Counted from the whole stretch's first letter, positions 26,178 through 63,782 are shown. The stretch: DNA of 63,782 nucleotides, filler included, from Folioceros fuciformis (GCA_049999805.1; 13 parts of 13 records of this genome joined end to end with filler, not necessarily neighbours in it); one strand, 5' to 3'. The notes: generated by a model not told the origin, from the sequence alone. Translations and numbers: made by a program.

Positions 26178-27294
26178 TTTTGAGGCCGCTTCTTCTTTGG
26201 GGGTTTTGGCAGGTGTGTGCCAAGACCTCTAGGCCTCCAGTGGTGTGGATACTCCTCCAGGATCAAGAGGAGAAGAAGGAGAGGTCCTGCTCCACATTTA
26301 CCAATTTCTTTGCTTCAGTGATGCTGGATGCTACGCGCACTTCGCTGATGAAGACGTAGTGTAGCTTTTCTACCAATCTGTGCAATTTGCAGACCTGATG
26401 TTCTAACTTAGCAAGGTCTGGTTTTGGCAAATGATTTTTAAGATCAGGACTTAAGTAACTTAATTTAGAGATCTACTTGTGTTGATGAGAGTGACAGCAA
26501 CAAGTGCGCCTGTTCTAGGCAGCCGCGCGTGGGCGCGTGAACGGAGATTCTGACCACCTGCACTGATCTTGTATCAGATCAGGGTGCCAGCCACAAGAGT
26601 TGTGGCTGTAGTGTCTTTCGGATGTCGACCGAGATTGCGCCCTGACGTGAAGATGCCTTCGGTTAGGCATTTTCAATTTGCAAGGCACTGATTAAGCGGA
26701 GTGGCCAGCGCATGATGATAACCAGCCCAAGTCTGTGAGGCAGCCATGGAGTTGGCAATAGCGCTGGGACTGAGCGGCCATTATACAAATTTGTGGTCGG
26801 CTTACATATCGCTCCTATACCAATTCAGTAAACCAAACCGTGCAGCGGTAGTGTGATCGGAAGAGATGAACAAGGAATGAATTAGACTGAACAACTATGG
26901 GGAGGGACGCCCGTGGCGAACCTAGAGTGTACCCAACCGTCATGTCCAACGGTCGTGTCATAACAATGTGACTATTCAGATGGTGCTTAGTGAGATGGCC
27001 CTAACCCTAATTAACTAACCAGGATAAGGCTGTTCTAGAGTTAACTAGACCTACTATCATACAGACCAATCGTGGAACTAGATAGTATCAAGGAATTTTA
27101 CTGTTGGCAACCCACAATTTTGCCTAGTTTCTTAGTAAACATGATGAATACGAAGTGCTTCGTGACCATTGTTCAATATATTTGGAGGTCTTCCACACCA
27201 AATAGCATGAATCATGGATATGTGCCACAAAAAATAATGGAGAAAATCACCCGAAGCCTGATTTGGGGGAATACGACCGTTAGGCGCACATTTT

Positions 27295-31479: not shown

Positions 31480-34400
31480 GCAGACTGCTAAGACCATTCA
31501 CCTTCTAAATCCATTTAGTTTTAAACCTCAACTTTCCCAAAGACCGTGGGCGTTCACCTACCCCAAGGGTAGGTGTGATTCCAATGTTCTTCATTCCCAG
31601 GAACTAGGAAACCCGCCGACTTCCACTCCTTCTGCTTGAATCGTTTCCAATAGGACTGCCTCATACCTTTTGCTGCAATCAATAGGTGCTCCTAGATGCG
31701 CCATAGCAGAGCTTTAGATGAGGCTGACACCGAACCTCCATATACCACAGAAGACCAGTTGACCCAAAGGTGGAAAAGATAAGAAGACCACAATAACCCC
31801 CAGCATTGTGACGGAAGTAGAGCTTTGCCCGATGTTGCATCCAACCCAAAGAGGGCAGTTTGTTTCGTGATCCTGAGGTTGGTGCTGGGAAGAATTCTAT
31901 GCAACCACCTGCCCACCTTACTCCATATCTCCTGGGCAAAGCTGCAGTGGAAGAACATGTGCTGACTGTTTGGAGCACCCGAGGAGCACAATCGACACTG
32001 GTCTTCTCCCGTAGCCACCAACAACCCATCCCATCGATCCGCATTAGGCAAATAAGCTTGAAAAAAACACCAAACTGTCGTCCTAACCTTGGCGGGAATT
32101 CCGTCCGTCTGACTTCCAAAGTAGCTTGATAGCTTCCTTTTGTCGCCGCACAGAAAGCTGTAGCTGGGGAGCCATTGGATGCCTTTGTCTGATTTTTGGC
32201 ACTCGCACCAGCCAGAGGAATATGTCGGCTATTAGGAAGTTGAAGAATGACCGAAGGCTGTCCGCCTTGCACCCTGGACGTCTGGGCCATTTGTAGAGAT
32301 CTGGTCTTAATGCCAAATCCCAATTCTCCGCAAGGCGGAACCAACATCGGACACCTGGTTTGTCCAAGGTTGATTGTCCACTAGGGCCTTCGAGTTGAGT
32401 GAACCACCGCCCTGCATGACCAGACTTAGAGAGGACCGTGATGGCCCGTAGTTCCCCTCTTCGGACATCACCATCGTTCTTGCCCTGACGTTCCAAAAGC
32501 CCTTCGGGCGACATGACCTTGAACGTTTGCAAGTTTTCTTTGTCAGCCGTACCTGAAAGCCAAATACCCCTATCCAATTCAAAGTCATCCTCCTATTCAT
32601 CCTCCTCAGAATCTGCGTCCTTACTACCCATGGAGTACGTATACAACCCCTCAGCGTCCAGGGAAGGTTGTTGCCTTAAAACCTATTGAACCTTATCCTC
32701 TAGTCCCTCTTGCAGCCATGAAAAAATGAGCCTAACATGTCTAGCTACTAACTCAAATTCTTCCTTGACCTCCGCCACCTCTTTCCAACGGGCCTCTGAT
32801 CAGTTCCATAAGTGACCAAGTTGGTTAACTCCTTTCCGACACACCAAACCGAAGATTTGTGACCGATATACCCTAGCCCTAAATTCTTGAGCCCACAGTC
32901 TTGAGAATCCTTGCAAAGGCACTCCCAGAACGTCATCAACCTACATGGGGTTACCTGGGACAATGTACCACTTGACTTCTAAGTAGCCGCTCTAGATTGA
33001 CTTGAAGAGTGAGAAGCACTCTACAGTACTTGTCTGCAAGGATGTTGTCAATAGATCTCCTTCCCTGAGGAACAGCTTGCGTGCACTCCAGATGCTGTGT
33101 TAGCAGACTCTTCCAAGGGTAGTAGGCAAGATCCACCGCCCTGACAACCCATTGAGCATGCAAGACTTTCATCTTGGCAACCGGGTCAATCACCCCTAGG
33201 CCCCCCAATCATCGTGCCTGAATAATGTGATGCCAAGCCACCTTAGAGCACCTCGCTGAGTTGTCCCCCGCACGGTTCCACAGGAATGAGGTCAACATCT
33301 GTTGCAGCCGTTTCACCTCTGCATTGGAAGGGGCCCACAAGAACAAATAACACCAAAGAGAGGCTATTAGGATATGGTTAATCACCACCAACCTTCCTGC
33401 CAAGTTAAGTTCCAACATCTGCAAGCTCACCGCTTTACGAATGAATATGAGGAACGCATACTTCCCTATCTCGCCGTTCTCATCCCCTTCATGGAAGGGA
33501 AGTCCCAAATACTTGTGAGTGGACCCTTGCGACACCCTCAGGATATGGCAGATGCATCAAGGCAGCTCCCCTTCTGTGTGTAGACACATCATGCGGGTCT
33601 TCCCCCAATTAACCTTGCAACCCAACAACTCCCCAAAAGCCTCAACCTTCCGGAGCAAAGCATTCAAAGAGGTCTCCTCTGCCGAAGAAAAATTAAGGGT
33701 ATCATCTGCAAACGCCGAGACCCTTAACTGCGATCCATCTGGATTGTGAACACCCTTGACTGCCTGATCTTGCTTAACTGCCCGGAGGAAGAAGTCATTC
33801 ACGATAATAAATAAAAATGGAGCCAGGGGGCACCCCTGACGTACCGACCGATGAATGCCAAAACGCTCCGTAAACGCTCCATTAATGGCTACCTTGGCTC
33901 CTGCATCTTCACACAAAATGGCAAACCCCCCACAGAAGTTATTCCCAAACCCAAAGCTACGCAAGCATCTCCACAAAAAGTGCCACTCAATGGAATCATA
34001 CGCCTTGCAAAAGTCTAGGGAGATGAAGACAACAGCTTTCTTCTGAACCTGGACATTGTCCTTAGCTTCCCGCAAGAGTAGAAGGTTGTCCAGAATGCAT
34101 CGATTTTGGATGAACCCCCTCTGCTCTTTCTCAATCCAATTGTCCATAAAAGGCTTGATGCAGTTGGCCAGTACCTTGGCTATCACCTTGTACGTAGTTG
34201 TAAGTAGGGTGATTGGGCGCCAATTGGAGATTGATAGACTGGCGTCTTGCTTAGGTGATGACCCCCATGTTGAACCAACTCCCCATGCTGCCCTCTTCCC
34301 AGATCATGGCCATGGCCTCCATGAATAAAGGCTCTATAAACTCCTAGCCCCAAAGCAGGAACTCGGGCGGGATACCATTGTGCCCTAGGGATTTATTCCT

Positions 34401-36108
34401 CGGCATCCCCTTAAGAGCCTGGAGTACTTCCTCAACTGTAGTCGGCTTATTCAATGCCTTGCGTTGGGCCTCGGACACCTTAGCCGAGAGTGATCCGTAG
34501 GAAGCTGACCACAGCTGTTCCCACCCCGCCACCTTCCCCACACTCGAGAAAATACCCACAAAGAAGAGGGTAATGAGCTTTTTTAAACCTTCCAGCGACT
34601 ATTGCATCACTCCTTGAGCATCTGGAAGAGCAGGAATTCTTGACCTGTGCCGGTTAGTAGCACCTTGTGGAAGAAGAACTTAGACGGGCCGTCCCCTTCC
34701 CTCACCCACTTGACCTTAGCCCTTTTAAACCAGCCTCTGGCTCTGTCTTCTTCCAACTTGGCCAACGCGCATTGTACCTCCGTTTTCTGGGCTGCTTCCT
34801 CAATTGTGAAGTCTCGCTCCTCCCCTTTCCTTTGCAACCAGCTTAGTTCCTCTCTCCAAAGCATTCTTGTTGACGCAACTCCTTCGCCCGTTGGACCCCC
34901 TGCCTCCTCAAGTATCTAGTTGCTTCTCTTTTAGCGTAGATCAATCTAGAAATAGCAGGCTCTTCCCCCGTTCTAATCCTTGCCAGATGTTTTTGACATC
35001 CTCAAACACCCTTTTCTCCTTGAGAAAGGACTTGTTCATTCGAAAGCTTTCCATATGCCTCCTTCGTCACCCCGAGTCCGGCGCAAGCCTCAAGTGCAGG
35101 CTAATTAGATGATGATCAGACAAGATCGTACCAGCGAGGATACTGTACGCGTGCACACAGGCCAACCACCCAGCAGGAACATAGAACCTGTCTAGCCTGC
35201 GCGCTCCCAAATTCTGCTGTTGTTGGTTAGTTCAGCTGATCTTCAAGGATTGCGGTTGACGATGCGCTGGGAGGGCTAACCACAAGTCCTGAACAGCCAA
35301 GACGGTATCTCTTAGTTCCTGCCAAGACATAGGCACCGACTGAATATCAACAGGGCTCTCCCCTCGGATATCCTCCCGCCTTTCAACAAAGTTGAAATCC
35401 CCAGCCAGCATCCACGGGATGTGCTCATCCAGATGTTCCCCCAACCTGCACCAGAGATTGCTTCAAGGATTGTGGTTGACGTTGCGCTGGGAGGGCTAAC
35501 CACGGGTCCTGAACAACCAAGATGATATCTCTTAGTTCCTGCCAAGACATGGGCACCGACCGAATATCAGCAGGGCTGTCCCCTCGAATATCCTCTCGCA
35601 TTTCAACAAAGTTGAAATCCCCAGCCAGCATCCACGGGATTTGCTCATCCAGATGTTCCCCCAACCTGCACCAGAGATTGCTCCTATTGGTGGCAGCATT
35701 GGGAGCATAGATGTTACATATGCCAAGTGGGCCTTGGGTTGTTTGCATCACCAGCCACACAAATCTTCCACCTTCATCGTGGCCCATCTCCAAGATATTG
35801 TGAGTGTGTTCTTGGTTTATAGTAATGGACACACCTCCCCGGGTTGCTGATACTCGCTGAGTCGAATGTCCCCCATTGTTTACATCTTCTGCTCTAGCTG
35901 CCACCCATTCTGTTCTACTTGGAAGGAAAACCTTCTTCACTCTCTGGATATGCTCCGTAGAAAGTTTATGCTCCTGTAGGCAAACAATATCCCAAGTGAC
36001 CTCCTTTTCTAACAAGTGTTTTAGTCTCCTACACTTCGAGGCCGTCTTTGACCAACCCCCTAAGCCTCTAACATTCCATGAAATGATTCGCAGGTGAGGC
36101 CCCCTCAT
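31480..36108 (-). mobile_element. L1-clade LINE ORF2 (APE endonuclease, RT, zf-RVT), disrupted
   Basis: SWNVRGLG, CLQEHK, NIYAPN, GDFN; RT LDFCKAYD, RQGCPLAP, FADD; GGLGV; C-terminal CRLC....SQHMFFHC. Short A-tract at about 31308 is a candidate 3' end. Confidence 0.93.
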
Positions 36109-36114
36109 AGTTTT

Positions 36115-39100
36115 TTAGGGTGTCAATACCCATTTATATGGTCTTGCTTGAGAATCTCTTGACCGCAGCAGGTTTGGGCACCCTAACCCCAGACATGAGC
36201 CTAGACCAAGGCAGCTGGTTATTAGCTTTAAGGTCAAGGGACATTCTTTGAAGTCGTTCAGATTTTCGTACGACAGGTGTACTCTTTTTGCCCCCATCTC
36301 TTGTGAACCTATCAGGGTCTCCCACTGCTATTATTGGGATCTAAGTCCAATTTTTCTCCCACTGCTATTATTGGGATCTAAGTCCAATTTTTCTCCCACA
36401 ACACGTCCAAGGACCACCTCCAATCGAGAGTATGCGGCATAGCTGGACCACATGCCTGTTTTAGATGGATATCAGCAAAATAATGCTCACCCATCTGAAA
36501 GACCCCACTGAAGAACCCCACCTCCTTGCCTTCCTCGCTCGCAAGAACACCTCCGGATGACAATGTTGCAAAAATCCTTTCCCGCTCTGAATGAAGTTGT
36601 TGCACTGGAATGAGGATTGGAAGCAGCTCTCCCTTGTCTCCTAACTTAACCAAGTACGAGTAAGTGTCTTGTATCTTACTCGTCACCGTAAGGTGAACTA
36701 AGAAAGGTTTGCCTTTCCACTTAGTTACTTTTTCCGTCGTCCTACTTCCCTGCCCACTCATCACTCTAGGATTCTCCTGCCCAGACACGTAGCACCCTTG
36801 TTTCACCATCATAGCCTGATCCCAGCTCTTCTCCCATGAATGACTTGGAGAAAAACATCCTTCATCCCAAAAAAAAACAGCCTGAACCTCATGCCAGACA
36901 GGTTCACCCTCTTCATCATCGTCTGCACACAGAGTTGTGAACAGGTCGTCCTCAGAAGCATAAATTGCATTCTCACGCATGATGGGGCTTCCGCCATCAG
37001 ACAACTCCTTTGTCAGACTGACTGAACCGTTTTCTACCTCCCTAGCGCTCTTTCTCTCCTCAGTACTGCGGTTCCCACCCCCTACCAAGGGAGCCATCAT
37101 CTCACCATTAGAGCATGGCCATCCGCTGAACCACCCTATTCACGGCTTTCCTTGCTTTGGCCACAGTAATCTGGTCCTGCCGCTTACACCTTGCTAACGG
37201 ATCTTCCGAGGTCTTGGTCCTCTTCCCCGCAGCACCCTCCGCGTTTTTTTGTTTGGTTGGTATCCAACCAGACACTAGCTCCATTAGCTCGGTTGGGGAA
37301 GCTAGAACCGATCTTACGGCCGGATCCAGCTCTCCAGCGGAGCCAGTTCCCCGCTGTTGTTCCACTAATTGGGAGGCCAATGCCAAATCACTGACTAGTG
37401 TTGAGTCCAACACCGAAGAACCGAGACACCTTTGCCCTTGGAACTTCAAAGCCTTCCCCACGCCCTCATCAATTGCCTCTGCAAGAAACCTTGGCCCTGG
37501 CCCCCGGCTCAAGCCCGGCGGCGACACCGACTCTGAGTCATGCACCCATACTCCCTGAGAAGGTGCAGCCGTTGTTGCTCCAGTCTCGGTATCAGAATTT
37601 GCTAATTTCCTTGTGGGCACCCTTTCTTCCTCCACAATCCTGGAGACAGGGGACCCTTTTAACCCACTCCTGTGGGCGATCCCAAGGCTAGCCTGAATCT
37701 CCCAGCCCCTGAGGATTTGCTGGTGTCCATCCTCGGAAGGTTTATCAGCTACTTCACCCACCACCCTTACCAGCGTTCCAGACCCCGGCTCCATGCTGCA
37801 GACCGAAGGCGGCTGCGTCTCCCAGCCTTGAGACCTGGACTCCTGAGCAAAGGGACCCGACAGTGTTCCTATGCCGGTGACCTCCTCTTCTAAACCCCTT
37901 GGAATGCCCAATGCCCCACCTCGTTCTCGGTGTCTGGGGGGCGTTTGGCCTCTTCAATCTGTTGTCCACCTTTGCACAGCTCATCCTGCACATCAGAGAC
38001 TAGTCCCTGTCCACAAACCTCTTCGTCCACCTGGTCTCCCACCATGACAGCTCCTAGAATTGCCCCAGAAGCAGCCCTGGACAAGAGGGAAGCGCCATGC
38101 AGGCTCACCCTTGGGGATGCTCCGACATCGGTGTCAGCGACCGAGGCACTGCCTAGAAGCGCACAATTCTCCCCCTCAGACCTGGATGCATGGTTTGTCA
38201 GCATCCCTTCCGCTTCCTGCCCACCTGAGACCACCGCTACCTTAGAATCAGCATCCATCTCCTCGTTTGCTAGGTGCTTGGCGGTGGAGCTTCCTTTCGA
38301 ATCCATCACATCACCCTGAACAACCCCGACTTGGACCTCACTTGCGCTGGGAACTAGCTGCTCATCCTAGAGCCCCCATCCAGATAGGAAATTCTTTGCA
38401 CCAGACTCAATAAGCGAGGCCTCGTCACCCCCAGCTGAATTCGGCGGCAACAGCGACTCTGAGCCGTGCACCCATACCCCCTAAGAAGGCGTGCCTGCTG
38501 TTGTTCCAATTTCAGTGTCGGAATTTGCGCACCTCCTAGTGAACGCCCTTCCTTCCTTCACAAACCTGGAAACAGGGGATGCTTTTAATCCATTCCTATG
38601 AGCGACCCTAGGGCTAGCCTGAATCTCCCGGCCCCTGAGGATTTGCTGGCGTCCACCCTCTGAAATCTTTTCATCTGCTTCACTCACCACCCTTACCAGC
38701 GTTCCAGACCCTGGCTCCATGCTGGAAATTGGAGGAAGCTGCATCTCCTAGCCTTGAAGCCTAGGCTCCTGAGCAGAGGGACCCGACAATGCTCCTATGC
38801 CGGCGACCACCTCTGTCACAACGCCTTTGTAAGTCCAATTCCCCACCTCGTTCCTGGCACCTCGGGGACGTTTTGCCTCTCCAATTTCCCATCCACCTAT
38901 GCACAACTCATCCTACCCTTCAGAGATCGCTCCCTGTCCATAAACCTCTTCCTCCACCTGGTCTCCCGCCTTGGCAGCTCCTAGAATTGTCCCAGAAGCC
39001 GCCTTAGACAGGAAGGAATCGCCATGCAAGTTCACCCTTGGGGGTACTCTAGTGACGGCGCCAGTGACCGAGGCACCGCCTAAGAGCGCACCATTCTCCT

Positions 39101-39777
39101 CCTCAAAATTGGATGTGAGATCTTTGAGCATCCCGGCCGCTTCCTGCGCACTTGTGGCCAACACTTCCGTCGCATCAACATCCATCTCCTCATTCGTCAG
39201 GAGCTTTACGGTGGAGCTTCTTGTCGAATCTTCACCTTGAAAGGCCCCGACTTGGATCTCGTTGGCGCTGGGGACTAGCTGCTCATCCTGGAGCCCCCGT
39301 CCAAATCGGTGAATCCCTGCCCCAGGCTTTATAAGCAAGATCTCTTCTCCCCCAGCTGAAGCATCCAAACCAACGGCACCTTGGCCACTCTCGCAAAACT
39401 TGCCACAGGCTTCATGACAAACTCCAACCCGCTCCAACCCCGCCTCCAGGAATGGGGAGGAAGCGCCTTGCAAGAAAGCCCTTGAGGGATCCTTAGCAAC
39501 TTCGAGCTTTGATTGTGCACCAACTTCCCAGCCCGCACCCGTGATGTTCAACAGATAAGAATCGCGTGATTCTTCATCCATCTGAGCCATGAACACTACC
39601 AGGAATTGCTTTGTCTGGTCCTCCATGACCTGCCCAACTGTGTACAGCGCCTCCATCTCCTCATCTTTCTTCCCCTCATACGCCTTGAGGTTAAAGATTA
39701 GGATCGAGGAGGCAAGGAGATCGAGATCGGGCAAGGCGAGAGTGAAAGTAGAAGAGATATTTTTATTTCAGACCATG
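36115..39777 (-). mobile_element. Decayed LINE ORF1 / 5' region with a large internal tandem duplication
   Basis: Long low-complexity minus-strand ORF fragments ending just before the ORF2 ATG (36108). A ~926-bp unit is duplicated at about 37520-38440 and 38446-39360. Confidence 0.6.
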
Positions 39778-39877: not shown

Positions 39878-39932
39878 CTATAATAACTAGCCGCAATTAT
39901 TAATTAGCACATATTATCCAACACTCCCACTT
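39878..39932 (-). mobile_element. PPT (AAGTGGGAG, 39932-39924) and start of copia 3' LTR (TGTTGG from 39923)
   Basis: Purine tract directly followed by TG, about 1 kb downstream of the RNase H stop. Confidence 0.75.
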
Positions 39933-40032
39933 GGTGATGATAATTTGGTGAAGTACACAACGGCTTGTACCCCTCGCTGCTGACTCCCAGTGAGGAACTC
40001 GAATAGAACACATACTCCATTACGTTCCAGCT

Positions 40033-40903
40033 GTGAGCATCGCCAGTGAAGATGCCACCGCCTGGTACAGACACCTGTATGAAAGCTCCCGAGCTGAGGT
40101 GCGCTGCTGCAATTTGTTTCTTGTTCTTGATCACCAGGTTCCTTTGCGAACTCATACAACGGGGGATTGGAAACCTGGACGGCCGCTGGGAACTACCAAG
40201 GAGTTTCTGGAGCGCAACAAACGCGGTGTGGTGCAGACTGTTTCCAACATGGCTGGTCCCTCTGCGCCTTAGCGACAGCCATCACCACCCCCTGCGCCTG
40301 TAGAAGACGAAGAGTTCGTGGTTTCGCCCTTTACCAGAGTGCTCAACTTGGATGTGGCATACTACAGTGACGGCTCCAAGAGCCGCATCCCGGTACGCCT
40401 GCCAAAGCCCAAGTGTCGTGGTGAAGAGACGAAGGTTGTGACCTATGGCACCCTGGAGTTCCCTTGCTCTCCGATCTGGTACAAAGCTTGGGTTGACTCA
40501 GAGGAACTGACGATGAAGAGGGTGAAAGTCCTCCGCTGCAGATGCTTTCCTGGGCATGTTGTTAGTCTGTACATTAAGATTACAAACCCCGTTCACTGCT
40601 TTTCACTACTACTGAAGTTGATGTCTTCAAGTTGCTTGTGGTTTTACTGACTGATCCCACTTGTTGTGGACAGAGTCCACTAGGCGTATCAGGGAGGAGT
40701 GGAAGATGTTGGAAGAAGCGAGAGCGACTGGTGATGAAGCCAAGTATAAAGAATTGTGCCGCCTGAAGCCTTGCAAAGACTGGGCGCCCGATGCCTCCTT
40801 CAAGACTAGAGATGAGTCTACCTTTGACACTGTTGAGGCTGGAACTGAGATAGTGTTAGATGTGATATCTGATTCTGATAACTCAGTCTCCTCGGGCTTT
40901 TAG
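40033..40903 (+). pseudogene. Antisense accessory ORF of unknown function inside the copia 3' internal region (disrupted)
   Basis: Lies between the pol stop (40915) and the PPT. Peptide blocks align with 62764-63706(-): GRPLGTTK, LNLDVAYY, PVxLPKP, ETKxVTxGTLxxPCSP, KRVKV..RCF.GHVVS, R..EEW. Confidence 0.7.
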
Positions 40904-40914
40904 AAGTAGATGGT

Positions 40915-43900
40915 TTACTCTGAATTGGATAGGAGTGCTTCTGCATCTCCTATGCCCAAACGTTGCATGTGCTTAAAGTGTAATTCTCTGCTTAAGGCTT
41001 TCGTCAATATGTCTGCTGGATTATCCTGCGTCGGGACATATTGTAAATCTATTTTGCCTTCATTCACGAGCCCCCGTATGTAGTGGTATTCTACCCCTAC
41101 ATGCTTTGTTCTCGAATGAAGAACTGGATTTCTTGCCAAGGCCATTGAGCCCTGATTGTCAGTATGTATAGTGATGCACGTTGGTATTTGAATACCTAGC
41201 TCCTTAAATAGCAACTGACACCAAACGATTTCCTTTGCAGCCACGGTCAGGACCCGATATTTTGCTTCCGTTGAAGACAGAGCAACTGTTGGTTGCTTTT
41301 TGCTTGACCAACACACTGGACCTGCTGCTATGGAAATCACATATCCTGAAACCGACTTTCTGCTGTCGATATCACCGGCATAGTCCAAGTCTGTAAAGAC
41401 TTCAAGGTCCAAGGGCTGTCCTTTTTGATGCTTATACGTAATCCCTAACTTAGATGTACCTTTCAGGTATTTGAATGCACGCTTAAGACTTGTCCAGTGC
41501 TCCACACCTGGATTTTCCAGAAACTGTGACAATACACTCGTAGTGTAAGCAATCTCTGGTCTTGTTGTATTACTGGCGTATATCAACTTGCCAACACCCT
41601 GTCTATAGGGTATGTTTTTCACTTGTGCCTTTTCGTCTCTAGTTACAGGTGACATGGTCTTGCTTAGTTTCTGACCAGTTGCCATGGGCGTTGATGCAGG
41701 CTTAGCATCCTTGAGGCCAAGCTGCTCAACACAATCCAAGAGGTAACGTGGTTAAGTCAGAGTCATGACCCGAGTCTTCCTGTTCCATTGGATGTGTATC
41801 CCTAGGCAACTCTGTAGGGGGCCTAAACAGGACATCTTGAATTTGGTGGCCAATACATCAGTTATACTTGTTATGAATGCCTGGCTGTTACTGGATAGTA
41901 TCAAATCGTCCACATAGACTGCTAGGTAGCATATAACCTCTCCTTTCAAGTATATGCACAAGCTGCTGTCAGCCTGGCTCTTTGTGAACCCAAGCTGTAG
42001 AAGTTCTGTGTCTAAAGCAGCATTCCATTTCATTGCTGATTGTTTTAACCCGTATATACACTTGATCAGTTTACATGCATAGTTTTCCTTTCCTTTCACT
42101 TCGTACCCTCGTGGTTGTTGCATGTATATCTCTGTATCAATCTTGCCATATAGGAATGCAGTTTTAACATCATACATCTGTATCTCATAATCATAGTATG
42201 TTGATATTGCAAGGAGGATACAAAGTGTGGAGAGCTTAACAACTGGTGAGAACGTTTCAAGATAATCCAAGCCAGGGATTTGAGAAAATCCCCTCGCCAC
42301 CAAACGAGCCTTGTACCGGTCAAAGGTACCATCCGCTTTGACTTTAAGTTTAAAGACCCACTTGCATGAAACCAGCTTTCTGTCAGGAGGTAACTCCACC
42401 AGTTCCCATGTTCCGTTTTCAATTAATGAGTCATATTCTGACTGAATAGCTTTCCGCCATCTTTGTGATCAGGTTGACGCAGTGCCTCTTCATATGACTG
42501 AGGCTCAATAGGATCAAGTGAACTTGCAGCGTTGACAAGCACATGAGAGGAAGATGGACGAAAGTCCAAAGCACGGTAGTAATCTGGAGGTTGACGCTGA
42601 CGGGATGGATACTGTGTACCGGGTTCTTCTGCAACTTGTGGTAGATCAGGTAAGTCAGCGTCTAGGGTAGGCTCAATGATATCAGCAACTTGTTCTTGAG
42701 GATGGTAGTCATGTGGATCCGAAGGATGATCTGGAACATCTGGCGGTACAGTTACTTCAATGGCATCATCAAGGCCAACAAGCTCAAAACCTGCAGGATC
42801 ACCTAAATCATCAACTGGATCTTCCCCCCCCACAGGGGCAACATCCTCAACGGGAAGAACTGGGGTGCTGTGATCAGTCTGGTCAAATTGCGAATCAGGG
42901 AAGGCGGATATGTCTGAATCATCAATGGAGGAATCCTTGGATGCTCCCACTGAAGACCAAGTGCGCCATTCAGCAAAGGTAATGCTTCGAGCATATACAA
43001 TCTTGTTTTTAGAGGCATCATAAAGCTTATATGCTTTAATGCCCTCTGTATACCCTAACATCAATAGTTTTTGAGATTTATTAAATAACTTTTTCCGTTT
43101 TTCCTTCGGGATAAAGGCATATGCGATACATCCAAAGATACGCAAGTGGAGTATAGAAGGCTTGCGCCCTGTGAACGCTTCATAAGGGGTAATAAGACCA
43201 ACTAACGAATTTGTAGGAAGTCTGTTTTTAAGGTAGGTAGAAGTCATAATAGCCTCTGCCCAGTATGGAAGAGGAAGCTGAGCATGATGAAGGAAAGATG
43301 ATGTCATCTCTTGCAGTGATAGGTTGTTTCGCTCAGCCACGCCATTTTGTTGAGGCGTGTAGATAACTGTAAGCTGGCGACCAATACCCTCAGCAGTACA
43401 GTAATCCCGAAACTCATCAGAGGTAAACTCTCCCCCATTATCTAATCTTAGGGTTTTTAATTGTTTGCCGGTCCATCGTTCCACATACTTGAGATACTCT
43501 TTAAAGTAGCTAAAGCATTCATCTTTGTGCTTTAGAATATAAGTTGTAACAAAATGTGTCTTATCATCTATAAATGTTAGGAAATACTTGCCACCACCAA
43601 TGGATGCTTGGGAGAGTGGGCCACACAAGTCAGTATGGACAAGTTCCAAGACATCTGAAGCTCTGTGTGGCTCTTTGTTCTTGAAGGCTGCTTGATGGCG
43701 CTTCGTAAGAGCACAAGACTCACATAGTGGAAGTGGCACAAGAGGACCTATCTGCCCATGCTGGTATAAATCACTTACAACTAGTTTTTGTAGCTTAACA
43801 GAGTGTGGATGACCTAGTCGTAAATGCCAAAGTTTTGACTTCTCTATCTGCTGTGCAGACACTTGAGAAGATCCTTCAGTCAAATGGGCATGTGGCTTAC

Positions 43901-44779
43901 GACTGTCTGTATGAAGACGAAACAAGTCTTTCTCTGAAGACCCAAAGGCAAGTATTTTCTAATGATTAAAGGCATTTAACACTTGACATTCTGTTTGAGT
44001 AAAAAGAATGTGACAGTGATTATCAGAATTCAACTTCCTTACGGAAATTAAGTTACGTGTCATGTTTGGTACGTAGTACACATCATGTAACACTAACACA
44101 TTTCCTGATGGTACTGACAGGTCTATGGTACCAATACCAGGAGATACAAAGGATCTATTATCCCCCAGGTATACATACTGATCCTTGACTGATCTGTACG
44201 TTTGAAATGCCTTTCTATCCAAGCATATGTGGGCAGTAGCCCCTGTGTCTAAATACCAGTCTATGGTATGTTGAACCTTTGTATGTGTTAACAAACAGGC
44301 AGGTGACAAGAACGAGCTTGTAGCAAAGACTGTTGTACCAACTGTGAGGGCAGAGGGGGTTGGTTGCTTCTTAATAACCACGTGAGTCTCAGCGCTGGTT
44401 GAACCCTCCTTGCGAGGAACACCAGCCTACTTTTTCCTGCACTCACGCTCCCAGTGACTAGGTAACTTCTTGCATTAGTTGCAATTTCCTGTCCTTTTGG
44501 GTTTTCTTTGACTGGCTCCACGTCCTTGTGAGCCACCTCCTCTTGAGGTACTGCCCCCACCCCTATTGTAGGGTCTTCCTCCTCCACGTCCTCAGTTAGA
44601 AGTGAAGAGGGCTTGCTGTTTACCAGTGCGTCTGCTTTGTGTTTTGTTGGCTTCCTCTTGCAATAAAGCTTCCACTAACTCTGCAAAGCTTGTTTCAGGT
44701 AGGGTTACACCTGAAGCCTTTGCAAGCTTTTCAGTCTGGAGCTTGGAGGCATTGAAGGATGTCACAAAGTGTGACCAAG
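40915..44779 (-). mobile_element. Ty1/copia gag-pol (gag C-terminus, PR, INT, RT, RNase H), lightly disrupted
   Basis: CKKLPSHWEREC knuckle, WYLDTGATAH, LWHLRLGHP, VHTDLCGP/DNGGEF/NGVAER, YVDD, RNase H SSTEAKY..DNQG..HSRTKH..ADILTK. Confidence 0.97.
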
Positions 44780-44879: not shown

Positions 44880-46878
44880 GCTGCACAGAAGCAGGTCGGA
44901 GGCGCGTCCGGTGAGAGCCAGTCTGCTGGCCTGCTTCTCCGACGATTTCCGCCTGGCAGCGACCAAGTCCGACTCCGACCTCTCTTCCCCCTCTCCACCC
45001 AGGCATTCTCAGTATTCACTGGCGGAGGCTCAGGGGCCCAAGGATGTTGCTTCCAGGAAATCCGTGACCGGGACTGGCTCCGGCTCCGGTTCCGGCAACA
45101 GTCCACCCAGGCCTTCTGCGCACCGCAGGTCGCTCTCCTTCAGCTGCATGTCCAATGCGGGAGCCGCGGGGGACAGCCCCGACACCCACCACGGCCGGAT
45201 CCCGCATCTCCCGCTTCTTCACCATGTGGTGTCCCCTCCCCCTTCCCACGAACTCAAGTCTAATGCGTGGGAGCAGGGTAGCGCGTTGCAGGAGCTTCAC
45301 AACCAGGTAGTGAGGAAGGAAGTGTCCATGAGGAAGAGGAGCCCTGTGGACGCTTGCTTCAGACCTTCCAATGCCGATGATGACCATTTGGATGAGGATG
45401 CGATGCTAGTGCAGGATCATGTCAAAGAGAGCACCGATGTAGACAATTGTTGCGGCTTTAGGTTGAGCACGTCGTCGGGAGGCGGGGATGGGATAGCGGA
45501 GCCCAGTGCTGTGCTTTGGGAGAAGGGCTTCTCGTCGGCTACTACCAGTGAGGATCCGGAAACCAGTTTCTTCACATCTATCGAGGCCGACTCCGCATGT
45601 GTCACTCCTAGGAGCTCGAGGCCCGTGCCTGCGCCTGTGCCTGTACCTTTACCTGCTACCTTTACCGCCTTTCCGTCTGAGCGAGGGCAGGCCAAGTGTG
45701 CCAGGACGGAGGAGCCCTGGGAGGCATCCTTCATTCCCGAGGAGCGCGAGCTTTCTTGTCCCTCGTCGGACTCGGAGACGGACTCGGACATCGACATGCC
45801 AGCCGTGGAGTTCTCGGAGGCCATTAGTGCCTGGGATACTGACGACTCCACAGCTGATCGGAGCTCGGGGGAGGAGAGCCCCAGCCCCATCTCCAGCCCC
45901 GCTTCTTCTTGTCGCATGGAGCTGGCCGTGATGGTGGAACAGATGGACAAGGCTGACAGTCAGGATGCCGAGGATTACTCCACCCACGATTCTCTGGAGC
46001 TGGAGGAGCGAGGGCTCAGGATTAGGACACGCCAACCTCTGCAACGCGATGGCCGTGGGTTCCCAGAGGGCCAAGCCAGTCCTTGCGACTCCTCGGTCTC
46101 GTCCACAGGAGCAGTGTGCGAGGAGGTCCGTGCTCGGGAGCTGGAGCAGCAGATTATGTCAGTCAGCCCGCGCATCCGCATGTGGGAGCCGCTTTCTGTG
46201 GCAACCACCGATGGCTGCACCACAGAGGATGAAGAGGACATGGAAGTGAGTCCGGCGTACGGCTGGGAGGAAAGCTTGCTGGCCATGAGGAAGTGCAGTT
46301 TCTCGTCTGATGACGACTACTTCGTTCTCAACGACCTGGAGGCCCGCCAGGGACGTCATGTGGTGTCCCCGGACCAGAGTCCGGACAGGCTGGAAGTCCA
46401 TCACCTCAAAGCAAACAAGGCGAGAACCGGGAAAAGGGAAGGGAGCCTTGACAGGAGGAGGTCAAGTGCCAACAGACACACCAAGGCTGGTGTTCAAGCT
46501 AGACCACGGTTGGGATATTCAGCTATGAAGGAAAAGCAGACGCGCAGGGGAGTGAAGGAGTCTCACATGACGACCACGACAAGACACCAAGGCCCAAGGC
46601 CTTCCCCTTTATCGACTGCCGCCCAAATGCCACCTGACATTCTAGGGAAAGTGCGGGAAAGTGTGCCTGTAGTAACCCGCTCCTATGATCCCTACGGGGA
46701 CTTCCGGGACTCCATGCTGGAAATGATCGTGGAGAAGGAGATCCTGGATACACCGGACTTGGAGGAATTGCTACAGGCTTACCTTGCCCTCAACTCTGAA
46801 GAGTATCATGGACTGATCGTGGAGGTGTTCACAGATTTGTGGTACGAGATCTTCGAGTCTGAGGAATCAGGGTACTAG
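44880..46878 (+). CDS. OFP: OVATE family protein (transcriptional repressor); 5' end cut by spacer
   Basis: Open frame of more than 650 codons. C-terminal OVATE domain ESVPVVTRSYDPYGDFRDSMLEMIVEKEI...LEELLQAYLALNSEEYHGLIVEVFTDLW, preceded by a long Ser/acidic region. Confidence 0.9.
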
Positions 46879-47303: not shown

Positions 47304-50082
47304 ATGGCTGGTTGGCTCACCAGCGTACTGGGAAGAGCGTCAACCCATCTGGCATCAAGGAATCCAGCTTTGGGGCACAACCAAGTCCGGAGATACAGCC
47401 CCTTAGCAACTCAGCCGGGCCGTCCACGAGGATATCGATTCCGACATGGGTTGACCACTGAGGGGCGTCGCCAGGAGACTCTGTGGAGACAGTTTTTCCG
47501 GGACCCCAGACGTTGGAGGCATAACAGAAACAAGAAAACAATCCATTCGCCTGATTTCCGGCACAGAAAGTCCCAGGACGGACTCTGGTTGAGCGATGTC
47601 CACAAGCCCCCTTAGGTGGATGCACAGCTTGCTGCTCTGGATATGGAAAGGGTTCGCGTGGTCTCCGACATTCGGCGGTCACCGGACGACACTGTCTTCT
47701 CACAGGCTTGCAGACGGCTACAGGGGCGTGACAGCAGAAACCGTACGGAAGCTATGCCTTGAGGGGCACCTGACCGAGGCTGTCGAGGCTCTGGAGGTTC
47801 TTGTGCAGACAACCTGTGCCATGTCCAAGTCTCTATTTTACACAGTCCTGATGAAATGTGTTGCGAAGAAGGAGCTTGTTCTGGGTAGCCGCGTTCATGA
47901 TTGCACGGTGGTAAAGGGTTTTACCAGTCAGACACTTTCCTGGGTTTTCACATCCTGCGAATGTATGCTGCTCATGGCAGGTTGCGAAAGGCCAGGATTG
48001 TTTTTGAGGCTGTCGCCAAACCTGATTGTTTCACATGGTCTGCCATTATCTCTGCCCATGTTAAGCAAGGGCAAGATAAGCAGGCCATAGAACTGTACCA
48101 CAGGATGCGTAGGTCCGGTGTGAAGCCCGACGGGTATGTGTTTGTGGCAGCCCTTCAGGCTTCAGCAAGGGGTTCAGACCTGAAAACTGGGCAGCAGGTG
48201 CACGAGGATGTGTTGGCCAGTGGTGTTGAGGCGGATCTGTTCGTTTATAGTTGCCTGGTGGACATGTATGCGAAGTGTGGTAGCTTGGAAGATGCTCGGA
48301 GAGTGTTTGACAGCCTGGGGTACAAACATGTGGTGACTTGGACTGCAATGATCGCAGGGTATTCTCAACAGGGCATGGGGCAGGAAGCCCTTCGTCTCTA
48401 CAGTGCGATGCTAGAGGAAGTCATCGTCGTACCAGACTGCGTGACGTTCGTGTGTCTACTTCAGGCGTGTGCGAGTGTGGGTGCCCCAGCGTTGGAAAAG
48501 GGGGAGCAGCTCCATGCTCGGATAAGAGAACAAGGACGTGAAAATGATGTGTATGTAGCCAACAGTCTGGTGACCATGTATGCAAAGTGTGGCACCGTGA
48601 AGGACTCGCAAAGAGTGTTTGACGGACTTGGTCAAAAAAATCTGGTGACCTGGAGTGCCATGAGCAAGGTATTCCCAGCAAGGGATGGGGCAGGAGGCCC
48701 TTCGTCTGTACAGTGCTACGCAAAACGAGGGCATCGCTGAACCTGATTGCGTGACATTTGTTTGCCTCCTGCAGGTATGTGCAACTGTGGGTAGCCCAGC
48801 TCTGGAGAAGGGGAAGCAGCTCCATATGCAGATTAGAGATTAAGGACAGCAAGCTGACGTGTTTATAGCCAACACCTTGGTGAACATGTATGCAAAGTGT
48901 GGCAGCTTAGAAGACGCCCAAAGTGTCTTTGATGAACTTGTTCAGAAAGATGTGGTGACATGGACGGCCATGATAGCCGCATATTCCCAGCAGGGCATGG
49001 GACAAGAAGCCCTCCGCCTCTACAGTGCCATGATCGAAGAAGGCTTGACCGTACCCAATGCCATGACGTTTGTCTCCCTCAGACAAGCATGTGCAAATGT
49101 TGCAGCCTTGTATCTGGGAAGGCTGTTACATGTACAAGTTGTGGAAAAAGGGCTTCAAGCTGACGTGTTTGTAGCTGGCAGCTTGATTAACATGTATGGA
49201 AAGTCCGGGAGCATGGTTGAGGCACAGCAGGTTTTTGATGCGCTGCCCGAAAGAAATCTTGTGATCTGGAATGCACTGATTGCAGGATACGCCGGTCAAG
49301 GAGAGTCTGATCTCGTTTTTAAATTGGTCCAGAGCATGAGACAGGGTGGGATACAGCCCGAAGGCATCACATTCCTTAGTGTACTGACCGTCTGCAGTCA
49401 TGCGGGTAGAGTGAAGACGGAAGACCACTACACATGCACGGTAGATCTCCTGGGCCGAGCAGGACAACTGAAAGAGGCACTAACTTTGGCAAGGTCAATG
49501 TCTTTAGTGCCCGATACTGTAGTTTGGCAAACATTACTGGGTGCGTGTCGAAAATGGAACGACGTCGAGGTGGGACGTCATGCCTTCAACGAAGCTGTGA
49601 AGCTAGAAAAACAAGATGCTGCCGCGTACGTGTTGATGGCAAACATTTACACCTGTTCCCAGTTGTGTCAGCAGGCAGAGGAGATGCAGGCGAGGAGAAA
49701 GAGAGTGAGGTCATGGAAACAGCCAGTTCAGAGTTGGTGGGGAGATGAGGATGAAGGGGTGCATAGCTTTTTGGTTGGGCATAAGAAGCACCCCCGAAGT
49801 CAAGCAAGGCTGAAGCAGGTTTTGGCTAAAACGAAGAAAGAGGGACCAGTGCTGCAGCTACACTCCTTACCGGCTCACACACATTTTGACAGAAATCTAT
49901 GCAGCCAAAGCAAGAAGCTGTCTACAATACATGCCCTAAACTTCATGTTCCATAGTCGGTGTGAGAAATGTGCGGATCTGAGTCGTTTGTCACGCTCCCA
50001 CGACATGAATGTGGGAAGGATTAAATCGAACTTTCAACTTAAGTTAGGCACGTCGTTTACATCTGTGCGTGCTGAGCCGTAG
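47304..50082 (+). pseudogene. PLS-E(+)/degenerate-DYW pentatricopeptide repeat gene with an N-terminal OSB-type PDF motif; disrupted
   Basis: PLS repeats (LVDMYAKCGSLEDARRVFD, VVTWTAMIAGY, PDCVTFVCLLQACA), HYTCTVDLLGRAG, W.TLLGAC, AYVLMANIY and a PG-box variant. Stops at 47613 and 48841, and frameshifts near 47700, 47920 and 48670. Confidence 0.9.
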
Positions 50083-59905: not shown

Positions 59906-62763
59906 TCCTCCTCTTCTTGGGCCGGAGTAGGAGTCGGTTGGGGAGCCAGGGGTGGAATCACTCCGGCGGGAGGTGGACTAGGTTAACGGGGTCCTCTCCC
60001 CTTCTTTTGTCCCTGGGGTGGAGGAGGTCGCTTGACATCAGAGGGCCTGATGTCGTGATGCTTGTTGTAGTCCAGTTGCACAGCCAAGCGGACCAGTTCC
60101 ATGCGGTTCGCCTCTTCCCGAGTCTTTGGCACTAGTCTTGTGGTTGGTGCAAGAGTCAAGAAATCTTCTGTCTCCGGGCTGGTGGGTGGCGGAGCACTCC
60201 GGATTGAAATCCGCCTGCCTGCTCTTAATATGGCCCAGATGTTCCTCCACTTGGGCTGGGGCACTTGAGTAGAGAAGCCTTTGTTTTTTGCTTTGGAGGC
60301 CACTTGGTGGGGTTTAGGGTGAGGCCATTGAGGGTGAGTCTAACGTGGCTCCGCAATTGTCCTCAGAGGGCTTCGAGATTGGTAAGGGTACTGGCGCGGC
60401 GATGAAGGCCTTAGGCTGGGTGTACGGGGTGGAGCCTTTTTCCGAGGGGCAGGAGGAGGAGCAATGGCTGGAGGGGTAGGCGTAGGAGGTAGACGGGCCA
60501 AAGATGTGTTTTCAGCAGTAGTTAGGACCCCGTGGTGGTCCCAAATATAGAAATGAGTAATGAGAAATAAAATAGTTAGGCCCCTTTGTATAGTGAGGTT
60601 TAAACCTAACAAATAACTACCAAACTTAAGTTTAAAGCTAATTCCTACTACCCCTTATTCTAGGGCTGCATATTTCATGCATAATCCTCATGCAAGCTTT
60701 GTTGCTTTCTCCCTCTTGGGAGAAACAAAGATATTATTCCCATTAATAACTAAATGTACTAGGCAATCATCCAAGAACCTTTTTGGATATCCTTTAATGT
60801 TACTATATACTATGGTACAACTCCACGTCCCGTAGCCATACTATGTCAAACATATCATATGCTGTCGTACAGGTACATGCGAATAGTAATGAGTTAATTA
60901 TTAGTTTATACTATTAAGTAAAATTGATTAGTAAAAGTAAAATAGTTACCTTAGATAATTAAATTATACACATAATTTTAGGTTAATAGGATAGACACAA
61001 AACTAGATCTGTGGGCTTGGTTGTAAGAGGTGTAGAAGCCTATCATAGTGGTGTCTATTGTAGTAGACTCTTGTTCTTCCTTTGTTGGAAATTTGATTGA
61101 TGTATGCAAGTGCACATGTGTAAAACCACGTGACCCAGTTGTAGATTTGAAAAGTCAAGCTACAACTTTGAGAATTGTGGATGCATGTGTTGGAGGTTCT
61201 TGTGGTGACAAAAGAAAGCAAATGCTTCAATATTTTTGTAATGTTATACACCATCATGCACTGATTAAGGTATGTATATTATGGTGTGGTATAAATATTT
61301 ATTAACTAATGAACCATATATGAGTATGATATCCAATGGTATAGAATGACAAGTTACCCTTGCAAAGAAATCCTCAATTTCGCATAATTCTTGATTATGC
61401 TGCACAAGGATATTTTATTTCTTCTTGTTTGTGTGTCTTTCTCTTTGCCTGATATGAATGGTTTGATAGATGAAATATATTGTGTGCAAAAATCTATTTT
61501 AACAATTTTAGCTTATAAATCACTTTCGCAATGTGCTTCAAGATTACAAAGGATCTCAATCACCTTGTGGTGAAGGGTTTCGCCGGTTTGAAAGGAGAAC
61601 GTTGCTCATGAAAATAAACAACGTTGTAATACTGCGTTATGGAGTCCTCTAGGTATGTACCTCCTAGTCCCAGCAGAAATGTTTGATTAATGCGTAGCGC
61701 TGTGTGACCGAGCCGTGGGGCAGGTAGTTAACTACTTTGACGCCTGAAAGGAACGACGAATTCCACAGTGGAGTTGCAAGCGGTGTGTCGATCGGTCGCC
61801 CGAGACGAATTGCGTTCCTAGTACGTTTCAGCGTGGATCGCCGGTCTCAGCTCACTGATCCTACCATCTGATCGCCGACAAGACGAGGCGCCGGGAGAAA
61901 ATTGAGCATGGTTCAATTGCAGCGTGCAGCAGCGCGTCTTCTTACGTGAGTGAATAAGGGGCCAGGCCGGCCACAATGGGGTACTACCTACCACCGTGTG
62001 AGCTGTGAGTCGGGGAGATGGAACACAACCGTCTGGGCGGGAGAACGGCACGGACTCCGGGTTGCAGCAAGAAGAGAAGTCGGTAGTGTAGATGACATGT
62101 CGCTGCATGTTTGCAGCAAGCCGAGTCCGCTGGACCAGTGTTGTAGCTGCGAGGAGCAGGAGCAGCCGGATGTCAACGACCTGCCGATCGAGGCACGGTT
62201 TTCCGAGAGGAAGAAGTTTTCGGACAAAGGTTTCCTTCCCAGTCCTGGCGGCAGTGATCGAGGCCTCGGCGTGCACAGGGGACGGCAATGGCACGCGGGC
62301 CAGTGCAATCCGGAGGGACCTAGTTTTGAAGTGAATGCCGACGAGGCGAGCGGCTGGCATGTCCCCCACCACATGCGAACCAGGAGCGGGGATCTTTACA
62401 CAAAGATTGGGTGGGACGAGGAGGCCCACGGAATGCAACACAGCGGTGACGAGGACAGCGATGAAGAAAGTGTGGGAAACGTGGGAGGTGATAGGTTGGA
62501 AGGGGAGGAGTGGATTACCAGTGGTGGCGGCCGATATGTCGTCAAGGGGCAGGGCTCCTGGGGCGATGGCTCTGGCACTGCATCTTCCACGGACTCGGAA
62601 GGACATTTTTCGACCAGTTTGAAACTACTTTCCGGCCGCTCACGTGAGGCGGAGAGAGAGCCANNNNNNNNNNNNNNNNNNNNNNNNNNNNNNNNNNNNN
62701 NNNNNNNTTAATTAATTAANNNNNNNNNNNNNNNNNNNNNNNNNNNNNNNNNNNNNNNNNNNN

Positions 62764-63706
62764 TATCAGCCTCCACTCCTCACTGAGCCTCTGGGCAGAC
62801 CCTGTATTTACAGCCAAGAAGATATGTCAGCAGGTTCCAAAGATCACGGAAACCTGCAGACAGTGGTCAAGAAATATCAAAGCACAAGGAAACCTGTAGG
62901 AACAGCAACAACAAAAAGAAATCAAAGGCAGGGGCTTACTGTAGAAGCTCACAACATGGCCTTCGAAGCACCTGCTTTGCTGCACCTTCACCCTTTTCAC
63001 CCTCTAAGCCAACCCAGACTTTATATCAGACAGGAGAGCAAGGATACGCAAGTGTGCCACAGGTCACGAGCTTGGTCTCAGTCTGACAGTTCACAGGCTT
63101 GGGCAACTTCACAGGAAGGTGACTGCTTTCAGCATGATGGTAGTAGGCGACATCTAGGTTCAGAGTCCTGATGATGGGCATGACTTCGTCACTCTCGCTG
63201 GACTCTGGCAGTGTCTTAGGGCGCGGCTGCAAGTCGGACGGACCAGGCGCCTCAGCTTCAGTCTTCAGCGCAGCAAGTTTGCGCTTCTCCAGAACTGCCT
63301 TGGTGGTTCCCAACGGCCGCCCAACCTTCGGCTTGGTGATTGCAGTCACAGCTCCCATCTTCCCGCTACGCTCACTCTCAATGGTAGCTGTCCTTGGCGC
63401 GAATCGACCTAAAGCATCTCGGCGGTGGCGGTGCTTAGTGATCCGATCAGAATTCGAAGAATCAGACATGGTGGTGATGATGAGCAGCTTGGCGATCTCC
63501 AAGTCGAGAAGCTCACAGATGATTCTGACAATGAAGAACACCAAGAATATAAGGGTGGCACATCGTGGTACCATCTTTATTACGCCCAGCGGTGTGCGCT
63601 CCGCAAGATCCATGTGGCGGCCGTAAGTGGTTGGGGAGTAATCGAGAACTAGGTCTGAGAGTTGAAGTGCCGTTTGATGCAGGGGTACGAAGGGTAGCTG
63701 AAGCAC
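62764..63706 (-). pseudogene. Second, diverged copy of the retroelement antisense accessory ORF
   Basis: 226-codon open stretch with hydrophobic segment, RRDALGRF, GRPLGTTK, LNLDVAYY and PCSPV*YKVWV, continuing as VKRVKVQQSRCFEGHVVSFY; candidate intron 62939-62802. Confidence 0.7.
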
Positions 63707-63726
63707 ATGTTTGAATCATCACCAGC

Positions 63727-63782
63727 AAGTGGGAGTATTGAATGAAGGATGTTTAATTAGTATATGCTGGTTATGATTAGTT
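63727..63782 (+). mobile_element. PPT (AAGTGGGAG) and start of 3' LTR of a plus-strand LTR element
   Basis: CATCACCAGCAAGTGGGAG|TATTG matches CATCACCAAGTGGGAG|TGTTG at 39939-39919(-). Confidence 0.65.

Follow-up and report, generated by a model that had tools for sequence, protein, structure and literature searches.

Two diverged copies of the same open reading frame (ORF), each lying antisense beside the 3′ end of a retrotransposon, raise the question of whether a plant Ty1/copia element can carry a protein-coding gene of its own on the strand opposite to pol. The stretch of DNA that we analyzed (the window) is 63,782 bases long and consists of 13 contigs separated by spacers of the form N44-TTAATTAATTAA-N44. 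One copy of the reading frame, here copy 2, occupies the complete last contig (62764-63782), and the other, copy 1, lies within the contig at 39878-44779. Comparison of the copy 2 contig with the whole window by blastn and tblastx identified a single real partner, 40170-40580, which is in the opposite orientation and directly downstream of a copia pol gene; window matches near 16165 and 60289 (24-26 bits, 14-46 amino acids) were read as noise. The best pair of frames between the two copies spans 92 amino acids at 45.7% identity (summed E 6.5e-32 by tblastx) and is antisense to pol. Based on the evidence set out below, we consider it likely that copy 2 is a second, diverged Ty1/copia member of a non-flowering land plant, and that this lineage carries its own two-exon antisense gene between pol and the polypurine tract (PPT).

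The original prediction for this locus quoted six pairs of peptides from the two copies, and proposed that their block-wise likeness reflects purifying selection on an antisense protein. All six pairs are present in the translations of both copies, confirming that the earlier observation is real. We aligned the copies in antisense orientation and counted differences over 388 aligned bases, i.e., the part of exon 1 common to both. These differences fall at antisense codon positions 1, 2 and 3 in the numbers 40, 39 and 67 (chi-square p = 3.1e-4), an excess at the third position, and 68 of the 126 aligned codons encode the same residue (0.54) at a base identity of 62%. The Nei-Gojobori method gives a proportion of synonymous differences (pS) of 0.657 and of nonsynonymous differences (pN) of 0.290 in this frame, with a Jukes-Cantor-corrected dN/dS (an imprecise ratio) of 0.23 over the 126 codons and 0.10 over a 77-codon core. 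The codon alignment and six-frame comparison proposed as a check on the original prediction came out in its favor: the antisense frame is enriched for third-position differences, has the lowest ratio and contains the fewest stops (two in total, one per copy), and the remaining five frames have dN/dS values of 0.46-1.50 with 4-14 stops per frame, both copies summed. The N-terminal segment, aligned separately, shows 10/6/20 differences by codon position, and an intron stretch described below shows no codon-phase bias (16/13/15). The pattern of third-position excess and low dN/dS suggests purifying selection on the protein during the divergence of the two subfamilies, and the earlier interpretation of a selected antisense protein is supported. 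Since both copies are now broken, this signal would be that of active ancestors, not of the present loci.

A likeness of this kind could in principle exist with no gene behind it, by chance, by non-coding conservation of the 3′ end of the element, or as the shadow of an env-like ORF on the sense strand. Two observations fit such an origin: the sense frame that shares the antisense wobble position also has a lowered ratio (0.46), and the antisense ORFs of both copies are interrupted. The shuffling analysis argues otherwise, as none of 2000 column shuffles reached the observed residue identity (shuffled mean 0.377, maximum 0.504, below the observed 0.54) or the observed pN/pS (0.44, compared to a shuffled mean of 0.87 and minimum of 0.504), in agreement with the earlier claim that the likeness is no chance ORF. 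Moreover, the sense frames (dN/dS 0.46-1.41) contain 4-9 stops over both copies against two in the antisense frame, and splice sites of the GT..AG type are found on the antisense strand only, where they are used in a contig from an RNA run. We regard the absence of any gene as very improbable.

The intron, together with an N-terminal hydrophobic helix and the broken state of both copies, is a feature absent from the original prediction. Conservation between the copies ends past ..GHVVS(F/L)Y and restarts past a common ACAG, with 138 bases (copy 2) or 100 bases (copy 1) between these points; the stretch separating the conserved blocks is pyrimidine-rich and carries many insertions and deletions. 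In copy 2 it starts with GTAAG and ends with AG, and the joined flanks stay in frame, leading to the prediction from the alignment, ahead of any comparison with run contigs, of a phase-1 GT-AG intron of 138 bases at 62802-62939 (minus strand). The homologous stretch of copy 1 (40574-40673, plus strand, 100 bases) keeps the acceptor ACAG and has TT, not GT, at the donor site. Both the position and the phase of the intron are common to the two copies.

Sequencing runs allowed this prediction to be compared with RNA. Eight runs (X1-X8) are listed for the copy 2 contig, of which three contain at least half of the sampled words and five (X4-X8) contain next to none; the contigs of X1-X4 were mapped onto copy 2. 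X1 and X2 are DNA from one sample of the same organism, and X3 is from another study and labelled “RNA?”. Record 8 of X3 (1450 nt, depth 83.4) covers 63678-62939/40 with one differing letter, and then continues at 62800-62764, skipping 138 bases whose ends read CT..AC on the plus strand (with one ambiguous base shifted, cut +1), i.e., GT..AG on the minus strand. The skipped bases are exactly the predicted intron, 62939-62802. The DNA contigs of X1 and X2 run through this intron uninterrupted, and X3 has no cover on the intron or on the long terminal repeat (LTR), though the LTR is the most abundant part of the element in DNA. We read X3 as RNA because of the exact splice joint, and conclude that X3 is RNA-derived and that the copy 2 antisense gene is transcribed and spliced; the contigs carry no strand, and the strand of the transcript was taken from the splice sites. 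X4 comes from the sample that gave X1 and X2; across the 1 kb of copy 2 it has 94 C>T and 64 G>A places, split by contig. It resembles a bisulfite- or enzyme-converted library, and could show whether the expressed copy 2 is unmethylated.

Detailed examination of copy 2 provided the layout of the expressed gene, all of it on the minus strand. Exon 1 is covered by X3 record 8 over 62940-63678, and contains an ORF that opens at the first AUG in the transcript contig and is ended by a premature TGA (63026-63613, 195 codons and the stop); there is no further ATG between 63678 and 63613. Residues 17-36 of this ORF (63506-63565) form a conserved N-terminal hydrophobic helix recognized by BLASTP, hydropathy and AlphaFold, and are followed by a basic block, KPKVGRPLGTTK, with a GRP core (63299-63334) inside a region of net charge +10. 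Near the end of exon 1, an alignment gap at 62999-63001 marks a frame-shifting shortage of 8 bases compared to copy 1, which is variable among individuals. Exon 2 starts at 62801 (..SAQRLSEEWRLI) and runs off the contig at 62764. Reading the copy 2 peptides as one protein requires readthrough of the TGA at 63026-63028, a change of frame at the 8-base shortage and skipping of the 138-base intron.

In copy 1 the same gene is on the plus strand. An N-terminal segment with two Met codons and the hydrophobic helix (40052-40174) is one base out of frame with the remainder of exon 1 (40171-40573, KPGRPLGTTK ... GHVVSLY), which contains a TAG at 40270-40272 preceded by a 159-base shortage compared to copy 2. 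Exon 2 (40674-40903) encodes ..STRRIREEWKM.. and then an acidic tail of net charge -5, ending in a stop at 40901-40903. This stop is 11 bases from the stop of pol (40915-40917), with the two genes tail to tail, and the PPT lies approximately 120 bases ahead of the first Met of the antisense gene. Because its stop is only 11 bases from that of pol, the antisense gene can be said to fill the interval between pol and PPT in copy 1. No tandem repeats were found in this interval (39878-41000 scanned).

The element that hosts copy 1 is recognizable from its pol gene (40915-44426, minus strand), in which Pfam identifies, in order on the minus strand, Pol_BBD (44426-43959, the barrel of the protease region), gag_pre-integrs/rve/SH3_retrovirus (43958-42423) and RVT_2 (42468-41752). 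These are followed by an RNase H part (41751-40918) that has relatives in copia elements and for which 472 of 1081 candidates score as relatives at E ≤ 1e-20; Pfam gave no family for the RNase H ORF itself. The resulting order of protease, integrase, reverse transcriptase and RNase H is that of Ty1/copia elements (Pseudoviridae), and the gene is interrupted both by a frameshift and by stops. Among named proteins, those nearest to the RNase H are fern sequences (45-52% identity). A protein from a 2.5-kb Logan contig (P0009) is 68% identical to it, compared to at most 52% for named proteins, and may be from a sister subfamily, possibly that of copy 2.

Both copies abut a 3′ LTR through an identical PPT. 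The 9-mer AAGTGGGAG is present at 39924-39932 (minus strand) in copy 1 and at 63727-63735 (plus strand) in copy 2, bearing out the earlier statement that the same tract lies on the strand opposite to the antisense ORF, and ATCATCACCA is common to both copies just upstream of it. In copy 1 the tract is followed by the first 46 bases of the LTR, starting TGTTGG (39878-39923, minus strand); in copy 2 it is followed by 47 bases starting TATTG (63736-63782, plus strand), which share 60% identity with the start of the copy 1 LTR. Where the LTR of copy 2 starts is shown by a depth step in the contigs of the DNA runs: contigs at approximately twofold depth (X1 record 3 and X2 record 7) start precisely at 63736, further DNA contigs with unlike upstream sequence join at 63732, and depth in X1 is 18.4 on the internal part of copy 2 compared to 40-57 on the LTR. 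This depth step, together with the branching at 63732-63736, shows that a repeat, i.e., the LTR, starts directly after the PPT. The contig ends at 39878 and 63782 each lie 46-47 bases into the LTR, the X1 contig of copy 2 is nearly coextensive with the window contig (1017 vs 1019 nt), and the assembly breaks at the LTR repeat in all data sets. The original prediction also held that the position of the antisense protein relative to the PPT is kept. This is correct for order and orientation, but not for distance, as copy 1 is 159 bases shorter from the PPT to the KxGRPLGTTK block.

The two copies together allow the product to be outlined, and it would have approximately 250-300 residues. From N- to C-terminus these comprise a short N-terminus with two Met codons, the hydrophobic helix, the basic region (+10), a proline-rich and acidic linker, and a core rich in Cys and aromatic residues, with conserved Cys, Trp and Tyr and the motifs LNLDVAYY, PVxLPKP, GTLxxPCSPxWYKxWV and KRVKVxxxRCFxGHVVSxY; past the intron, xRIxEEW is followed by the acidic tail (net charge -5). 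The hydrophobic segment has 11 of 26 residues identical between the copies (BLASTP E 1e-6) and a Kyte-Doolittle maximum of 2.77 over 15 residues; it is in frame with the rest of the ORF in copy 2, and one base out in copy 1. The GRP core of KPKVGRPLGTTK is reminiscent of an AT-hook. AlphaFold modeled the 195-residue ORF alone with a predicted local distance difference test (pLDDT) score of 53.2, in which the sole confident part is a helix at residues 15-50 (pLDDT 89-94 for residues 21-40), and the core, supplied with three aligned rows, with a pLDDT of 38.3.

Searches for relatives of this protein gave no lead. Five antisense pieces scanned against Pfam matched no family at E ≤ 0.1, the Transposase_28 profile (PF04195) included. 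A word-seeded protein search with the copy 1 core returned one candidate and none that scored, sequence searches of the PDB returned 0 matches, and in the ESM Atlas recognition was 1828, under the mark of 2300; the nearest clusters there are bacterial transposase fragments with 128-139 of 256 features in common, which we did not take as a lead. A HMMER profile search of 1.84 billion representative proteins returned two matches at E ≤ 0.001, both of which are translations of tandem repeats whose weak repeated matches sum, and both were rejected. One translated tandem repeat (P0006, 398 amino acids, with a unit of approximately 130 residues) repeats GTLKVPCAPIW(F/Y), which is near to the core motif GTLEFPCSPIWY; this likeness may be due to chance, or to a satellite derived from such an element. 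Metagenome, prokaryote and viral scans were carried out using a two-row alignment of 47 residues. No viral contig contained a locus matching this alignment, and two other loci were set aside as chance: one on a bacterial metagenome contig (L001), matching in an off-frame of a large ORF, and one in a prokaryote genome (L002), a Bacteroidales protein with LNLDVAYY in common.

Several of our observations weigh against the presence of a working gene of this kind in the lineage. Copy 2 carries the premature TGA at 63026-63028 in the window and in X1, X2 and X3, at a Trp codon of copy 1; this stop is 86 bases ahead of the exon junction in the transcript, and the full protein need not be made. A further break, near 63000, is the lack in copy 2 of 8 bases present in copy 1, seen in both the window and X3 and shifting the frame. 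At this site X1 and X2 hold 8 additional letters that X3 and the window do not, and the break therefore differs between individuals; it falls past the TGA, in sequence that is already untranslated. Four of the six differences between individuals in the copy 2 frame upstream of the TGA alter the residue, which, with the caution due to such small numbers, fits relaxed constraint today. Copy 1 is broken by the TAG at 40270-40272, the 159-base shortage, the frame offset and the TT donor. In addition, the copy 2 contig begins inside exon 2 and contains no pol; the selection analysis compares two copies with dS near saturation (pS 0.66-0.73), making the ratio imprecise; X3 is labelled “RNA?”, with its RNA status resting on the splice joint itself; both structure models are poor (pLDDT 38 and 53); and the protein has no relative in Pfam, the PDB or the 1.84 billion representatives, leaving its function without outside support. 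Both copies are now pseudogenes, and copy 2 is still transcribed and spliced.

The extent of this transcript bears on what it might do. The X3 contig extends 673 nt past 62764, and the X2 contig extends 74 nt; by the layout of copy 1, the 673 nt of X3 would take in what remains of exon 2 and then, in antisense, some 450-480 nt of pol. At the other end, the start of the transcript is bounded at or beyond 63678, the X3 contig beginning 58 bases short of the LTR. Both copies have an AT-rich TAATTA box approximately 20-25 bases inside the LTR. The gene would then be transcribed towards pol from a start within approximately 60 bases of the LTR edge, with a promoter at or just inside that edge, and its transcript would end inside pol. 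The intron would survive retrotransposition, as it lies antisense to the genomic RNA and would never be spliced out of it. Such a transcript would probably reach the 3′ end of pol on the antisense strand, making pairing with the RNA of the element itself possible.

This overlap brings in a purely RNA-based role, in which the antisense transcript of the 3′ end pairs with genomic RNA for silencing or copy-number control, and the ORF is incidental or weakly used. With a contig depth of 83.4 the transcript is abundant in its run, it contains a premature stop, its 673-nt extension would enter pol in antisense if copy 2 is laid out as copy 1, and passages of a review discuss such a role of antisense transcripts (PMC7264820), as a further source does, in part, in citing the antisense RNAs of yeast Ty1 as copy-number control (PMC11624286). 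However, a role of the RNA alone predicts neither the third-position excess, nor 54% residue identity at 62% base identity, nor a conserved intron phase, and we judge it distinctly unlikely. RNA and protein roles are not mutually exclusive.

The other alternative is a passenger, i.e., a host gene, or part of one, captured in reverse by the ancestor of the two subfamilies, which would have brought its coding signal and its intron with it and would do no service to the element. Gene capture is among the possible origins of antisense ORFs given in passages of the same review (PMC7264820). Introns are typical of host genes, and copy 2 looks low-copy (internal depth 18.4 vs 40-57 on the LTR) and is expressed like an ordinary gene. 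Against a passenger, no host homologue was found among the 1.84 billion representative proteins (the two matches being repeat artefacts) or in Pfam. The third-position bias also lies in the differences between the subfamilies, which arose after any capture, inside the element, and the gene fits the interval between pol and PPT to within 11 bases. A passenger is unlikely, in our view.

We favor a two-exon antisense gene belonging to the lineage itself, whose protein, being under purifying selection during the divergence of the subfamilies, would have served the element over that time. Whether this amounts to a true copia accessory gene, with its own promoter at the LTR edge, a conserved intron and an orphan protein of membrane-type helix and basic, nucleic-acid-binding region that is needed by the element or employed in controlling how the element copies itself, we regard as about as probable as not. 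In view of the analogous antisense ORFs in Grande, RIRE2 and Retand, and of antisense genes in retroviruses, we tentatively propose, with low confidence, an element-encoded regulator or helper that might bind nucleic acid via its basic stretch, be membrane-anchored, or both; the overlap of sense and antisense RNA at the 3′ end of pol would contribute a further effect at the RNA level. If it is a true accessory gene, it would be a plant copia counterpart of retroviral antisense genes, and active elements would be present elsewhere in the genome, with the decayed copies described here as their relics.

The rest of the window contains both host and element sequences. One contig carries host genes at 44881-46878 and 47901-50082 (both plus strand), encoding an Ovate-domain protein and two PLS-type PPR ORFs, one with an E motif; the presence of Ovate-domain and PPR genes on one contig identifies the host as a land plant, and the best named relatives of one PPR ORF belong to a lycophyte, mosses, Ginkgo, ferns and a conifer (approximately 35-50% identity). 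Taken together, the PPR and RNase H searches, at 40-52% identity to proteins of lycophytes, mosses, ferns and gymnosperms, place the host among the non-flowering land plants, and no more narrowly than that. Other Ty1/copia pol fragments are located at 1532-3847 (plus strand) and 27289-29717 (minus strand), on contigs that end short of the interval between pol and PPT, and we class them as different families because their proteins are merely 34-63% identical to copy 1 pol. An RVT_1-type reverse transcriptase at 33557-34303 (minus strand) is accompanied by several long ORFs on the same strand in 35425-39767; the three of these scanned near it (36378-37139, 37108-37953 and 38913-39767, minus strand) matched no Pfam family, and the region 33557-39767 is another retroelement. 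The end of the contig preceding copy 2 (61818-62711) contains two long overlapping ORFs on opposite strands, of 268 (minus) and 253 (plus) amino acids. No Rfam family was found anywhere in the window.

Several known systems share parts of this arrangement. Elements of the SIRE clade are also Ty1/copia with an extra ORF between pol and the 3′ LTR, whose fast-evolving products are without conserved domain, as described in sections of the REXdb survey (PMC6317226). The main text of that survey names the SIRE sense ORF as the sole such feature of a copia lineage, and reports 582 copia elements, from 45 groups, as carrying extra ORFs of 250 codons or more, with no orientation stated there (PMC6317226). 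A gene of this size that is split by an intron would escape surveys requiring unbroken ORFs 250 codons or longer, such as this one (PMC6317226). The env-like ORF of SIRE elements (eORF-3′F) is on the sense strand, whereas the present gene is antisense and spliced from its own transcript, and its conserved frame is the antisense one, with no sense-strand ORF of the SIRE kind.

Retroviral antisense genes, e.g., HBZ of human T-cell leukemia virus type 1 (HTLV-1), are likewise protein-coding and transcribed in antisense from the proviral 3′ end, and HBZ exists in a spliced form as well. The 3′ LTR of HTLV has an antisense promoter, according to passages of PMC7264820. HTLV-1 infects hosts of another kingdom, and the likeness is one of arrangement, with the transcript start in our element merely bounded. 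In yeast Ty1, the antisense RNAs are non-coding and lie over gag, unlike the present transcript, which is at the 3′ end and shows constraint at the protein level. Yeast Ty1 nevertheless belongs to the same Ty1/copia superfamily and has element-borne antisense transcription, which acts on the element itself according to the consulted portion of PMC11624286.

The closest match in arrangement is to the antisense ORFs between pol and the 3′ LTR (aORF-3R, or eORF-3′R) in the Tat clade of Ty3/gypsy elements, for which the available passages of two sources give Grande gene23 (maize), RIRE2 (rice) and Retand (Silene) as examples (PMC7264820, PMC11963269), and those of a third give fifteen common-bean families with such antisense ORFs, including PvRetro13 (PMC4093653). 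In the descriptions found there, these ORFs occupy the same place in the same opposite orientation as ours, are kept across families, have their own transcription and have no known function (PMC7264820, PMC11963269, PMC4093653). The features that characterize the aORF-3R class are found in our element: in copy 1 the ORF (40052-40903, plus strand) runs opposite to pol, in the interval from the pol stop to the 3′ LTR, and copy 2 has the same order relative to the PPT and LTR; the frame is conserved in more than one copy (n = 2) with a coding-type pattern of substitution; and transcription is antisense, with the strand given by GT..AG on the minus strand. The differences are that the Tat clade belongs to Ty3/gypsy and the present gene is in Ty1/copia, that the interval is approximately 1 kb rather than 3-6.5 kb, and that the copy 1 interval contains no tandem repeats. 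The product of the Retand antisense ORF is Transposase_28 (PF04195), as given in parts of PMC7264820 and PMC11963269. Our gene, unlike the Retand ORFs, has no match to PF04195 or any other Pfam family, placing it in the structural class and outside that protein family. It is also split by an intron and has spliced RNA, and the word “intron” is absent from the available text of PMC11963269; a search for antisense and spliced transcripts of plant LTR elements is called for in a passage of PMC7264820.

A full-text literature search, in which subscription journals are poorly covered, found no antisense protein-coding ORF in a Ty1/copia element. The present gene is the analogue, in a copia element, of antisense extra ORFs known chiefly from Ty3/gypsy, and, if the accessory-gene reading is true, it would be the first such gene within the literature searched to have a conserved intron and spliced RNA. 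In plant LTR retrotransposons, antisense extra ORFs have long been puzzling, being common in some Ty3/gypsy lineages and of unknown function, and the arrangement is now seen in Ty1/copia and outside the flowering plants. Three lines of evidence, i.e., coding-type divergence between subfamilies, a conserved intron position and spliced RNA, argue here for a real gene, which at approximately 1 kb offers a compact case for asking what antisense genes do. Their occurrence in both superfamilies points to antisense genes having been gained repeatedly and independently at one and the same place in LTR elements.

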